The position numbers and the translations under genes were made by a program. Below are positions 1-41,213 of a DNA stretch of 64,000 bases, one piece after another. The stretch is from an uncultured Gaiellaceae bacterium (lineage in GTDB: Bacteria; Actinomycetota; Thermoleophilia; Gaiellales; Gaiellaceae). The stretch is taken from positions 18,954 to 82,953 of the forward strand of contig CAVUTA010000018.1 of the NCBI GenBank assembly GCA_963744285.1, in the 5' to 3' direction. Position 1 is the first letter of the stretch, and each line of letters opens with the position of its first letter. Below the pieces are notes generated by a model that saw only the letters and a program-made list of their open reading frames with translations, was not told the DNA's origin and ran no database searches.

Positions 1-80
1 TTCGAGCAGTTCAAGACGATCTGAGCTGCGCAGACCCGCAATCTGCAAGAGCAGATCGCGGCTCGCGCAGATCCCTGAAG

Positions 81-99
81 CGGGCCGCTTCGCGGCCCG
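81..99 (+). terminator. GC-rich hairpin (8-bp stem CGGGCCGC/GCGGCCCG, loop TTC). Possible terminator of a gene ending just inside the left edge.
   Basis: Perfect inverted repeat read directly from the sequence. It lies about 57 nt after an in-frame TGA at 22-24 that closes an ORF entering from the left. There is no U-tract. Confidence 0.3.
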
Positions 100-133
100 G
101 TCGCACCGAACCACCAGGGTAGGCTGTGATTCC

Positions 134-354
134 GTGAGCGTCGAGATCCTGTACTGCCCGACCTGAAGCGGGTACGACAAACGGGCCGCGAGTCTCGCGG
201 CCGAGATCTCCGCAGAAGCTCGACATCGACGCGATCGCCACGCCGGGTGCGAGGTCGCAGTTCGACGTGCTGGCTGACGGCAGCCTCGTCTTCTCGAAGC
301 AGGCGAAGGGCCGTTTCCCCGAGGACGGCGAGATACTCTACGCTGCTGCGCTAG
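134..354 (+). pseudogene. SelW-like (Rdx-fold) small redox protein with CxxU/CxxC-type motif. In-frame TGA at 164-166, and one frame break near 216.
   Basis: From GTG 134 the translation is VSVEILYCPT-TGA-SGYDKRAASLAAEISAE. After the break, in the frame of ORF 267..653, it continues LDIDAIATPGARSQFDVLADGSLVFSKQAKGRFPEDGEIL. The pattern (YCxxC/U ... PG...F.V..DG.LV.S....GRFPE) matches the SelT/SelW/SelH (Rdx) family. The C-terminal end is uncertain; a TAG at 352-354 in another frame is used here. Confidence 0.5.
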
Positions 355-1822
355 TCGTCTCGCTCTTCGTTCTTCCCGTTGCCCTTGCCGGGCCCGTCGC
401 CGCATTGCTTCTCCGCTTCGCGACGGAGCCGGTCGATCTCCGATCGGTCGCCCTGCACCTCCTCGGAGCGGTCGAGGAGCTCGAGCACGCCGTCGCAGCT
501 CCCGAGCGCGAGGCGGGTGAACGCGAGGTTGTAGCTCGCGTACGCCTCGGCCAGCGACCCCGAGCCCGGCGAGCTGTGAGACCGCCTGCTCGAGCAGCGG
601 GAGCGCGCCTTCGTAGTCCTCGGCCTGCATGCGCGCGAAGCCCGCGTCGTTGAGCTCGGAGCCGCTCGACGCCCGAGCTCGGGCGGACGTCTCGTCCTCG
701 GGAACGGTCGCCGTCTCGGTGACCGTGAGGGTCGACTCGGTGTCGGAGACCGTCGACACCGTCGTCGTGACGCGCGTGATCGTGCGGACCTCGGGCTCGT
801 CTCCGTTCGAGACGAAGGCTGCAGCGGTCAGCCCGCCGAGGAGGAGCACGACGAACGCGAGAGGCGCGAGCCAGCGCAGCCGTCGCCGCGCCGGTGGCGC
901 GGCTGTCGGGTGCGGTGGCGGCAGCACAGCGGTCACCGGCTCGGCGTCGCGGAAGACGTCGCCGAGCTCCTCGACGAGCTCGCCCGCGCTCGCAGGACGA
1001 GCGCCCGGCTCCTTTGCCAGCGCCCGCTCGAAGACGGCGTCGACGCCGCGCGGGAAGCGCCGGCGCAACCTGTGCCGCGCTCGGGATCGGCGCGTTGAGA
1101 TGCGCGAACGCCTCCGTCACCGGAGTCTCGGCGGCGTAGGGCCGCCGCCCGGTGAGCAGCTCGTACGCGACGACACCGAGCGCATAGCGGTCGCTCGCCG
1201 CCGTCGCAGTCTCGCCTCGAGCCTGCTCGGGCGAGAGATACCCGGCCGTCCCCAGAACCGTTCCCGGCAGGGTCAGCGTGTCGAAGCCGGCCGCGGACGC
1301 GATGCCGAAGTCGGTCACGTGCACGCGGTCCTCGTCGTCCAGCAGAAGGTTCGCGGGCTTCACGTCTCGGTGCACGATGCCTTGAGCGTGCGCGGCGTCC
1401 AGACCCGCGGCAGCCTGACGGAGCCATTCGATCGCTCGGCCCGGGGCGACAGGGGTGGATCGGACTCGATCGTGCACGGAGCCTCCGTCCAGGTACTCCA
1501 TGACGATGAACGGCTGGCCGTCGTGCTCGCCGACGTCGAAGACCGTCACGACGTTCGGGTGCGCCGAGAGACGCGCCGCGGCGCGCGCCTCACGCGTGAA
1601 GCGGGCGCGAACGTCGGGGTTGCGCGCGTGCCGCTCGGCGAGCACCTTGACCGCGACGGTTCGGCTCAGGAGGCCGTCGGTCGCGCGGTAGACGTCTCCC
1701 ATCCCGCCGCTCGCGAGAGGGCTGACGGCGGAGTAGCGCGACGGCAGGATCCGCTCGGACACGGGGGAGGTGTACCCGATCAGCGCGCTTCCGAGCCTTC
1801 GCGAGCGCCGAGAGGTAGACAT
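351..1822 (-). pseudogene. Ser/Thr protein kinase (Hanks-type) with one TM segment and a C-terminal TPR-like extracytoplasmic tail. At least 2 frame breaks (~1050, ~575).
   Basis: ORF 338..1858(-) carries GGMGDVYRA, AVKVL, HRDVKPANLLL, DFGIA and GTAGYLSPEQ. After ...APALP the frame is lost. Another frame reads GVDAVFERALAKEPGARPASAGELVEEL...WLAPLAFVVLLLGGLTAAAFV...LNDAGFARMQAEDYEGALPLLEQAV, then ...SLAEAYASYNLAFTRLALGSCDGVLELL...GKNEERDD* with the stop at 351-353. Start taken at ATG 1822 (MSTSRRS...). Confidence 0.8.
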
Positions 1823-25577: not shown

Positions 25578-27390
25578 CTACCCCGAGGCCGCGATCGCCG
25601 CCTCGAGGCTCGGAGTGTCGGAGAGCAGCCGCTTGGTGTACTCCGCGTCCGGCATGTCGAGCACCGTGTCGACGGCGCCATGCTCGACGATGCAGCCCTC
25701 GCTCATCACGGCGACTTCCTGCGCGATGGTGCGGATCAGCGCGAGATTGTGCGTGACGAACAGCAGGCCGATGTGGAGCTCCCGCTGAAGCTCGGCGAGC
25801 ACGTCCACGATCGCCGCCTGTACGGACACGTCGAGAGCGGACGTGACCTCGTCGCACACGAGGAGCTGCGGCTCCGCGACCAGCGCCCGGGCGATGGCCA
25901 CACGCTGGCGCTCGCCGCCGGAGAGCTGGTGCGGGTACCGCTCGAGGCAGCTCGACGAGAGCTGGACGCGATCGAGCGCCTGCGTCGCACGTCGCCGGCC
26001 CTCCGAGCCGCCGGCTCCGAAGAACAGGCGCAACGGCTGCTCCGATGATCTGCCCGATAGTCTTGCGCGGATTGAGAGAGTTGTAGGGGCTCTGGAAGAC
26101 GTACTGGATCTCCCGACGCGTGTCGGCGTCGCGGGCACGCGCGCCGGGCGGCAGCGGCTGCCCTCGGTAGGAGATCGCGCCCGTGTACTCCGCGTGGAGC
26201 CCGCCGACGCAGCGTGCGAGCGTCGTCTTGCCGGAGCCCGACTCGCCGACGAGCGCGAGGCACTCGCGCGGCCTGATCGCCAGGTCGACGTCGAACAGCA
26301 CCTGCCGAGTGCCCGTACGAGGCGCAAACCCCGCGGACGGCGACGAGCGCTTCGTCGACCTCGATCTCGGGCGCGGGCACCGCTCCCGGCCGAGCCGCCG
26401 CAGCGTCGGCCAGGACGACGGCATGCCGGATGCACCGCACGACGTGCTCCTCTGCGACGAGCTCGAGCGGAGGCTCGGCGGCACGGCACGCTTCTTGCGC
26501 GTAGGTGCAGCGCGGCGCGAAGAAGCAGCCGGTCGGGCGCTGGCCCGGGCGAGGCGCCGTCCCGGGGATGCCCACGAGCGCGTGGATGCCGGACAGCTCC
26601 GGGATCGCCTCGACGAGCCGCCGCGTGTACGGATGCCGCGCTCGGCGAAACAGCGTCCCGGTCGGCCCGACCTCGACCAGCCGGCCGCCGTACATGACTG
26701 CCACCCGGGTCGCGAGGGTCGCGACCACGGCCAGGTCGTGGCTCACGTACACGGCCGCGACGCCGTGCGCGGCGCACAGGTCGCGCACCGTCGCGAGCAC
26801 ATGAGCCTGCGTGGTGACGTCGAGTCCCGTCGTCGGCTCGTCGAGCACGATCACGCGCGGCCGGTTCGCGAATGCCATTGCCAGCGCGACGCGCTGCTGC
26901 TGCCCGCCCGAGAGCTGATGCGGGTAGCGCTTGAGGAACACGTCGTCGCTCGGCAGCAGCACCTCGCCGAGAACCTCGACGATCCGTGCGTGGCGTTCGT
27001 CGTCCGATGCGCCGAACCCGTGCTCGGAGAGCGCCTCGTCGAGCTGCCTGCCGATCCGCATCGCCGGGACTCAGTGCAGACGCCGGGTCCTGCGGGACGT
27101 ACGAGACGAGCGTGCCGCGCAGCCGCTGGCGCTCGAGCGGCGGGAGCGTGAGGATGTCGCGTCCCTCGATGCGCACCTCGCCGCGGGCGATCCGTGCGCC
27201 GCGGCGCGTGTGTCCGAGAATCGCGAGGCCGACGGTCGTCTTGCCCGGAGCCCGACTCGCCGACGAGCCCGAGCACCTCGCCCGCGCGCGACCTGCGAAC
27301 GTGATGCCGTCGACGATGTCCTCGTGCTCGCCGTAGTCGACCTCGACGCGGAGGTCGACGACCTCGAGCGCCGGAGCGTGCGGTGCTCAT
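25578..27390 (-). pseudogene. Dipeptide/oligopeptide-type ABC transporter, fused double ATP-binding protein (DppD-DppF). About 6 frame breaks.
   Basis: Two ABC cassettes: GLVGESGSGKTT...YPHQLSGGQQQRVALAMA...IVLDEPTTGLD and LALVGESGSGKTTLAR...[19 protein letters not shown]...LVCDEVTSALD. They are spliced from ORFs 26851..28239, 25578..27176, 25736..27061 and 24151..26484. Confidence 0.8.
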
Positions 27391-40440: not shown

Positions 40441-41213
40441 CTACGTTCCCTTGAAGTCGGCCGGCCGCTTCTCGAGGAACGCCTGCACGCCCTCGGCGAA
40501 GTCCTCCGTCTGCGTCGCCGCCTGCTGGAGCTCCGCCTCCAGCTGGAGCTGCCGGTCGAGCGACGCCGTGTAGGCGTGCTCGAAGAGCTGCTTCGTCATC
40601 GCGACCGCGCGCGTCGGCAAGCGCCGCGTACCACTCACGCGAGCTCCGCGACCCGCGTCTCGAATCCATCCGCCGGAACCGCCTCCGAGATGAGGCCCCA
40701 GTCCAGCGCTTCGTCCGCGCTCAATCGCCGATTCGAGACCATCCACTCGAACGCCCGCGTGAACCCGAGCAGGCGATGGATGAACCACGTGCTTCCCGCG
40801 TCGGGCACGAGGCCGATCCCGATGAAGCCGGGCACGAAGGTCGCATTCGCCGAGCCGATGCGGACGTCACACGCGCACGCGAGCGAGAGCCCGGCGCCTG
40901 CGACGGGGCCGTTGATCGCTGCGATCACGGGCTTCTCGAGCGCACGGATCGCGCGGACGTTCGGGTGGTAGGTCTGCTCGAGCGCGTCACGCACGCCTCC
41001 GGGGAGCGACTCGAACTCGCGGAGGTCCTGTCCCGAGCAGAACCCGCGGCCCGCTCCCGTGAGGACGACTGCGCGGATCGCCGGGTCGGATGCCTCCGCC
41101 AGCGCAGCCGCAAGCCCCTCGTGCATCGCGCGGTTGATCGCGTTGTAGACGTCCGGGCGGTTGAGCGTGATCGTCAGAACGGCGCCGTCGCGCGAAGTCA
41201 GAACCTCGGTCAC
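40441..41213 (-). pseudogene. Enoyl-CoA hydratase/isomerase (crotonase) family protein. One frame break near 40630.
   Basis: VLTITLNRPDVYNAINRAMHEGL...AVVLTGAGRGFCSGQDL...KPVIAAINGPVAGAGLSLACACDVRI... The C-terminal ...EDFAEGVQAFLEKRPADFKGT* is in ORF 40441..40788. Confidence 0.85.

Follow-up and report, generated by a model that had tools for sequence, protein, structure and literature searches.

Can a TGA triplet at the redox site of a small SelW-like gene be translated as selenocysteine (Sec) in Gaiellales? The question arises from a stretch of DNA of 64,000 nucleotides (nt), hereafter the window, from an uncultured Gaiellaceae bacterium (Actinomycetota; Thermoleophilia; Gaiellales; GenBank assembly GCA_963744285.1, contig CAVUTA010000018.1, positions 18,954 to 82,953 of the forward strand). 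Near the start of the window, at 134-354 on the + strand, lies an Rdx (SelT/SelW/SelH, or "SelW-like") gene in which an in-frame TGA (164-166) is followed by a hairpin (184-202), and a sequence-only reading of this DNA had proposed that the two form a selenoprotein gene with a bacterial selenocysteine insertion sequence (SECIS). Drawing on translations, matches to Pfam and NCBIfam profiles, a clean orthologue (locus L001), alignment of related loci, and AlphaFold2 and Foldseek analysis of the orthologue P0004, we find that the gene very probably belongs to a Gaiellales-wide family of small (~72 amino acids, aa) Rdx SelW-like selenoproteins whose UGA is read as Sec by means of a SECIS element. 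For the gene at 134-354 itself, the UGA almost certainly encodes Sec.

A conserved UGA codon within an Rdx gene

Translation of the gene is predicted to start at GTG 134-136, ten codons 5' of the UGA, and from position 134 onward the + strand reads GTG AGC GTC GAG ATC CTG TAC TGC CCG ACC TGA AGC GGG TAC GAC AAA CGG GCC GCG AGT CTC GCG GCC GAG. The redox motif Cys-Pro-Thr-Sec (TGC CCG ACC TGA) occupies 155-166 of this strand, with the Sec codon at 164-166; the positions given in the sequence-only reading for the TGA, for the two arms of the stem (184-190 and 196-202) and for the loop AGTCT (191-195) are all correct. In the window copy, frame 1 yields VSVEILYCPT, a stop and then SGYDKRAASLAAEIS, frame 2 carries on as KLDIDAIATPGARSQFDVLADGSLVFSKQAKGRFPEDGEIL, and frame 3 terminates with TLLR and a stop at 352-354. 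Removal of two 1-nt insertions that are private to this copy, and to which we return below, gives a gene of ~72-73 codons, VSVEILYCPTUSGYDKRAASLAAEIS(A/Q)E.LDIDAIATPGARSQFDVLADGSLVFSKQAKGRFPEDGEILTLLR followed by a stop. The TAG that closes this repaired frame (352-354, + strand) aligns with the stops of L001, L006, L007 and L009.

Profile searches, for which the repaired translation was used with C substituted for U, place the product in the Rdx family: the match to PF10262 (Pfam Rdx) reaches 50.4 bits, where 22.6 are required, and that to TIGR02174 (CXXU_selWTH) 44.1 bits, where 34.2 are required. The Campylobacter-type equivalog NF041051 (SelTWH_Campy) gives 60.3 bits with native spacing and 66.7 bits with one residue removed, and its cut-off of 88 is not reached; by these scores the Gaiellales gene is related to that equivalog without being a member of it. 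The Pfam score likewise rises, to 58.3 bits, when one residue is removed, and on this basis a 3-nt insertion, TG[AAG]C, was suspected of having turned TGC GGG into TGA AGC GGG. This candidate was rejected, as every orthologue has both the TGA and the extra codon (for Ser, Asn or Gly).

The gene is far from confined to the window. When one genome was scanned for each GTDB species, 478 turned out to encode a relative, and the comparisons below cover 86 loci, namely the window, the best 80 of these 478 species-level genomes and 5 metagenome contigs. The best 80 are nearly all metagenome-assembled genomes (MAGs) of Gaiellaceae, Gaiellales or Thermoleophilia, many of them from long-read soil assemblies, and the TGA-containing gene is present in 80 of 80. 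The expectation of the sequence-only reading that such a gene would be unusual in this lineage is thus reversed: it is the norm. Three MAGs each contain two different Rdx loci (L007 and L036, L052 and L053, L021 and L054), all with the TGA and the hairpin, indicating that at least some Gaiellaceae have two paralogues. A second or third copy within the window itself, hinted at by the synteny of its 13.8-23.7 kb and 39.4-48 kb regions with Rdx flanks elsewhere, was rejected after tblastn found a single copy.

The TGA occupies the same codon, after C-P-T/V/I, in 86 of 86 loci, and on both sides of it, in the same frame, the sequences are conserved at the protein level with free third positions, indicative of purifying selection. 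In the 81 distinct orthologue sequences, the column of the start codon holds GTG in 52 cases and ATG in 26. The orthologues encode Pro9 by CCC (43), CCG (27), CCA (6) or CCT (4), Gly13 by GGC (43), GGG (27), GGA (7) or GGT (3), and the Cys of the motif by TGC or TGT. This free choice of Pro codons, together with the use of both TGC and TGT for Cys, indicates that the stretch 5' of the UGA is translated. The genes themselves end in TAG (54 of 83 orthologues), TGA (21) or TAA (8), and since TGA is an ordinary stop in 21 of 83, its decoding at codon 11 must depend on local context.

Public annotation mostly misses this arrangement. The available gene calls (P0017-P0079, P0001, P0024 and others) are of two kinds. 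Some are C-terminal fragments of 39-61 aa, mostly 42-48 aa, with non-homologous starts after the TGA, the 42-48-aa database proteins spanning the C-terminal 60% of the query; others are full-length entries from the Joint Genome Institute (JGI) that render the TGA as W. The DNA of the relatives shows an in-frame TGA, which marks both the short fragments and the W entries as annotation artefacts. Taken at face value, the 42-48-aa products that automatic callers begin after the TGA would suggest that this triplet is a sequencing error or a plain stop, that only the downstream open reading frame (ORF) is real and that the hairpin is a chance GC-rich stem, its folding energy being unexceptional for the composition. 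We give this explanation next to no credence. The TGA is kept in 86 of 86 loci, all independent assemblies, which excludes an error or an ordinary stop; the start and the ten upstream codons are conserved at the protein level with synonymous variation; start codons 3' of the UGA are not conserved, and use of the first in-frame one in the window, GTG 267, would cost half the domain; and codon choice within the hairpin is frozen, as described below.

Different codons at this position are found in three single short metagenome contigs, which carry TGT (Cys; L090 138-359), TCA (Ser; L091 454-669) and TTA (Leu; L092 203-430). Each is one base from TGA and leaves the hairpin unchanged, and one of the contigs has a coverage of 1.1. 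These variants are recent Sec-loss mutants or read errors.

The identification of the TGA as the U of a CxxU motif is borne out by homologues in the PDB, whose CxxC motif has its second Cys at this position (YCEPC in 2LJK, YCTQC in 3DEX), and by the Cys codon TGT of contig L090. An AlphaFold2 model, built with 24 relatives, was made of the natural Cys-form orthologue P0004 rather than of the window protein. This model has a predicted local distance difference test score (pLDDT) of 90.5, strands at residues 2-7, 31-36, 42-46 and 49-53, and helices at 14-27 and 63-72. Its CxxC loop lies between β1 (2-7) and α1 (14-27), and in the window protein C8-P-T-U11 follows VEILY. In a Foldseek search of the PDB the best matches were the SelW-related structures 2FA8, 2P0G, 2OJL and 3DEX (template modelling, TM, scores of 0.84-0.88); with 2OBK and 2OKA, the top six span TM scores of 0.77-0.88. 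MIEN1 and mouse SelW (2NPB, TM 0.70) came next, while thioredoxins appeared only at E > 0.01. The model predicts a thioredoxin-like β1-α1-β2-β3-β4-α2 fold shared with SelW, and by analogy with these homologues Cys8 and Sec11 likely form a selenenylsulfide redox couple. Overall, the Rdx/SelW-like family assignment first made from the sequence is backed by PF10262, TIGR02174, 85 related loci and structure prediction.

The hairpin downstream of the UGA

The SECIS-type hairpin at 184-202 (+ strand) has the stem GGCCGCG (184-190)/CGCGGCC (196-202), to which RNAfold adds a closing pair, A191-U195, leaving a GUC triloop (192-194). The stem of 7-8 bp begins 17 nt 3' of the UGA and the loop after 24-25 nt, the 5-nt form of the loop being separated from the UGA by 24 nt. 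Its stability is unexceptional for a GC-rich sequence (z = -1.19, with 29 of 200 shuffles folding equally well), and the significance of the hairpin is judged from its conservation.

Codon choice within the hairpin is nearly fixed. Ala18 is encoded by GCC in a fraction of 0.93, Ala19 by GCG in 1.00, Ser20 by AGT in 1.00 (80/80), Leu21 by CTC in 1.00, Ala22 by GCG in 0.95 and Ala23 by GCC in 0.89, compared with top-codon fractions of 0.37-0.72 at conserved fourfold-degenerate sites outside the hairpin in the same gene. Among the Ser codons of these genomes AGT is the least used, at 2.4%, and the joint codon-usage probability of GCC GCG AGT CTC GCG GCC is ~5e-4. In the alignment of 81 distinct sequences, standard pairs fill 97.4% of stem cells, as opposed to 26-53% when the 3' arm is slid, and compensatory changes on both sides occur in 8 stem cells, a number reached by 0 of 500 shuffles. 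The pair 184/202 changes from GC to CG in 6 sequences and from GC to AU in 1, and the pair 187/199 from CG to UA in 1. In the five apical pairs and in the loop there is no or hardly any change, and the GU of the loop is invariant in 81 of 81 sequences. This comparison indicates that the hairpin at 184-202 is under RNA-level selection beyond the needs of the protein. The SECIS-like interpretation in the sequence-only reading is upheld by an orthologue alignment with TGA in every locus, frozen synonymous sites in the hairpin, 97.4% paired cells and an invariant GU loop.

An RNA-level role of another kind could be sought on the opposite strand. A Ser/Thr protein kinase gene converges on the Rdx gene from the right and ends at 351, and a consensus scan for terminators calls a minus-strand site at 202-184 with the tail CGTTTGTCGT, as if the hairpin were the intrinsic terminator of the kinase gene. 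However, the apparent T tail is the complement of the Y-D-x-R codons, the third of which varies (ACA, GAA, AAA, GCG and others), so that the T run is not conserved. Loci with another gene downstream, or with that neighbour on the + strand (L002, L005), moreover keep the hairpin just as invariant, and it sits 150 nt beyond the kinase stop, within coding sequence. We therefore consider a terminator very improbable.

Under the preferred reading, in which the hairpin is a SECIS, translation would start at GTG 134 and the ribosome would pass the UGA at 164-166, with the hairpin at 184-202 and its invariant A-[GUC]-U apex acting as a bacterial SECIS. The hairpin would recruit SelB.GTP.Sec-tRNA(Sec), leading to the insertion of Sec, and the product would presumably cycle between selenol/thiol and selenenylsulfide states as a thiol-dependent oxidoreductase. 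The data establish the family, the fold, the conserved UGA with coding sequence to either side and the constraint on the hairpin RNA; Sec as the inserted residue, the binding of SelB to the hairpin and this redox chemistry are inferred.

Sec machinery, private insertions and gene neighbourhood

Several observations weigh against the decoding of this UGA as Sec, and against an intact gene in the window. On the side of the RNA, covariation is limited to two basal pairs of an almost invariant element, so that the case for RNA selection is mainly one of invariance; RNAalifold retains the top 4 stem pairs only; and no Rfam family matches the hairpin. Scans of the sampled DNA for the same loop, and for an in-frame TGA with a hairpin, revealed no other selenoprotein gene. 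On the side of the machinery, tblastn with SelA, SelB, SelD and Fdh of E. coli and Arthrobacter gave no match to any of the four in the window and ~1.5 Mb of Gaiellales flanks, and tRNA-Sec is not among the 20 tRNAs that ARAGORN finds in those flanks. Among SelA proteins, a search seeded with Arthrobacter SelA returned Micrococcaceae only and no Gaiellales; cluster representatives and look-ups led to Gemmatimonadota, Vicinamibacteria, Myxococcota and Actinomycetota, with none assignable to Gaiellales; and a search seeded with P0239 (from a 3.17-Mb contig) led to Nitriliruptoria, with none tied to an Rdx-bearing contig. Finally, the window copy as given is frameshifted twice, and its first 565 nt contain three of the private insertions, a higher density than in the rest of the window.

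The in-frame TGA and hairpin scan did give one site, at 27389 on the - strand of the window, which was rejected as unconvincing. There a TGA is followed by a GU-loop hairpin with the stem GAGGTC/GACCTC, and the flanking translation contains no redox motif; this TGA is probably a plain stop with an open frame beyond it.

The actinobacterial Sec query sequences came from the Arthrobacter sp. YA7-1 plasmid pYA7-1a (L089, NZ_CP110115.1 19387-44589), a conjugative plasmid on which a complete and portable Sec module, fdh(Sec)-selD-selC-selA-selB, lies beside a Tn3-family transposase. The window itself contains zero tRNA genes according to ARAGORN and no Rfam match at gathering level, and a ranking of SelA representatives by amino-acid composition did not tell lineages apart. 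The ~1.5 Mb of flanking sequence is too small a sample for the absence of Sec genes from it to be informative. SelD, SelA and SelB are listed for the cultured Thermoleophilia Solirubrobacter soli, Solirubrobacter sp. URHD0082, Patulibacter americanus and Conexibacter woesei Iso977N, as well as for Rubrobacter xylanophilus (PMC5029168 Table S1), showing that the trait exists in close lineages. We found no literature linking Gaiellales or Gaiella with selenocysteine.

These searches tied no Sec machinery to any Gaiellales genome, and in the two fdh SECIS elements that we read for comparison the loop is 6 nt closer to the UGA. Both points could be accommodated if the UGA were recoded by a non-canonical route, either with Cys delivered by a tRNA-Sec-like tRNA or by near-cognate read-through stimulated by the hairpin. 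The UGA nevertheless occupies the exact Sec site of a family with established bacterial selenoproteins (PMC1088965, PMC1794560), the loop retains the GU typical of SelB-binding SECIS elements, and SelD, SelA and SelB are reported for cultured relatives within the class. The failure to find the machinery reflects the limits of searches that were not whole-genome scans, and positive support for non-Sec recoding is lacking; we regard it as hardly likely. The wider proposition that Gaiellales, an abundant soil order with few cultured members, decode this CxxU gene either by non-canonical Sec insertion, with a SelB/SECIS pair of 6-nt longer spacing, or by non-Sec recoding is improbable as well, if slightly less so. 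In a weaker version, the whole order may be selenium-dependent through one Sec-only protein without a Cys back-up.

As for the state of the gene in the window, the sequence-only reading had recognised one frame break (~216), and comparison with the aligned orthologues shows two. The first frameshift is caused by an inserted G at 212 (+ strand), absent from L001, L005, L006, L007, L008, L009 and L010, and the second by an inserted C at 338 (+ strand), absent from every aligned orthologue. Without the latter the gene ends in EILTLLR and a stop, and it takes this second frame change to arrive at the stop at 352-354. Further private insertions occur at 565, where the C-terminal part of the kinase is thrown out of frame, and at 40622, 40639, 44240 and 44328. 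Each of these seven window-private indels was called against three relatives; all seven are insertions, several of which are not homopolymer extensions.

One interpretation of this pattern is that the selenoprotein family is real and the window copy a dead pseudogene, with a stop at 275-277 after ~47 codons. Neither of the insertions at 212 and 338 is shared with a relative or amounts to a mere homopolymer extension, and three private insertions fall within 134-565, compared with ~4 in 5.4 kb further along. On the other hand, the window is otherwise 94-95% identical at the nucleotide level to L006 (MAG contig CAWGAN010000002.1), and the gene shows no further damage: its start codon, CxxU motif, UGA, hairpin and C-terminal motifs are all intact. 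Unrelated genes of the window have private insertions too (565 and 40.6-44.3 kb), and L006, itself a long-read MAG, has private indels of its own, which fits assembly error better than the decay of one gene. That all seven private indels are insertions likewise looks like technical bias. A pseudogene is thus unlikely; the insertions at 212 and 338 are probably consensus errors of a draft long-read assembly, and the real gene is in that case probably intact.

The gene lies in a variable neighbourhood. Positions 1-24 of the window are the 3' end of paaD, which encodes a phenylacetyl-CoA oxygenase subunit (DUF59 and a Cys-rich tail ending in CRSIRYCESCRQPFEQFKTI and a stop). The last 22-24 nt of paaD are identical in 36 related loci (37 matches with the window itself), and the Rdx start follows paaD by 20-140 nt in at least 10 loci, so that the selenoprotein gene often stands directly 3' of a paaABCD-like cluster. 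In the spacer between the two genes (21-115), folding yields a pair of strong hairpins (-48.3 kcal/mol), of which one is GGGCCGC-UUCG-GCGGCCC at ~81-98. Partial copies of 27-109 (~35-85 nt) are found elsewhere, as a tandem pair in L074 (16439-16628) and as single matches in L011 and L064, and this spacer element may be a small repeated terminator-like element. On the other side, the 3' end of the convergent kinase gene (351-1858, - strand) abuts the Rdx stop codon. L001 is collinear with the window over 10 kb, keeping its arrangement for at least that distance. In the closest relatives, L006, L007 and L008, the equivalent of window 1-1792 runs straight into that of 39453 onward, with ~37.7 kb (1793-39452) absent, and in L018 and L074 the Rdx gene has the equivalent of window 13.8-23.7 kb directly upstream. 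The missing segment and the altered neighbours indicate that the genome has been rearranged around the Rdx locus.

Comparison with known SECIS elements and SelW proteins

Knowledge of bacterial SelW-like selenoproteins that combine a CxxU motif with a SECIS inside the gene goes back to 2005 (Zhang, Fomenko and Gladyshev 2005, PMC1088965; Zhang et al. 2006, PMC1794560), and JGI labels some relatives of the present gene "selT/selW/selH-like putative selenoprotein". What may be new is the scope, that is, a distinct subfamily fixed in its Sec form across Gaiellales, sometimes in two copies, with an almost invariant SECIS and mostly missed by annotation. A recoded UGA is, on this evidence, a fixed feature of a widespread soil lineage (478 GTDB species genomes with relatives) in which standard gene callers err, reporting either a 42-48-aa fragment or a Trp in place of the TGA. 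Once correctly annotated, the gene would bring a selenoprotein into the physiology of Gaiellales and, by implication, a dependence on selenium. Knowledge of how bacterial selenoproteins work is unchanged.

The two SECIS elements read for comparison are those of E. coli fdhF and of the fdh gene on the Arthrobacter plasmid pYA7-1a. In fdhF, the UGA is followed by CAC GGC CCA UCG GUU GCA GGU CUG CAC C, and the GGUC loop is closed by an A-U pair, with G23 and U24 in a numbering that begins at the U of UGA; the Arthrobacter element has a 7-bp stem, GGUUCCC/GGGAGCC, and the loop AGUUU, again with G23 and U24. Like both, the Gaiellales hairpin has a GC-rich stem of 7-8 bp and presents GU in a small loop closed by an A-U pair (A-GUC-U). 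Unlike both, it places this GU at nucleotides 29-30 rather than 23-24, two codons further from the UGA, a difference that belongs with the adverse points gathered above. The bSECISearch model reportedly allows a spacing of 16-37 nt between UGA and loop, a range within which the Gaiellales loop falls. A bulged U such as U17 of fdhF is absent from the Gaiellales stem, which is perfectly paired and almost invariant across 80 species.

The Gaiellales protein resembles the bacterial SelW-like selenoproteins in most respects: it is a thioredoxin-like protein of ~70-80 aa with an N-terminal CxxU motif and a putative intragenic SECIS just after the UGA, whose loop contains G, and, as in that family, there are very few Cys counterparts within Sec-using organisms. 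According to the Sargasso Sea study (PMC1088965), bacterial SECIS elements, those of SelW-like genes among them, are stem-loops 3' of the UGA whose small apical loop has a conserved G. The Gaiellales subfamily differs from other Rdx proteins in its motif, C-P-T/V-U-S-G-Y-D-x-R-A-A-S-L, and is one residue longer than the Pfam model and the PDB homologues in the stretch from U to the conserved R-A. With mammalian SelW (2NPB) and MIEN1/C17orf37 (2LJK, the best PDB match by sequence, E 5.7e-6) it shares the predicted Rdx fold (TM 0.70-0.75) and the placement of CxxU or CxxC, at a sequence identity of only ~24%. In contrast to eukaryotic SelW, which depends on a SECIS in the 3' untranslated region together with SBP2/eEFSec, the Gaiellales element follows the UGA by 17 nt within the ORF, in the bacterial style.

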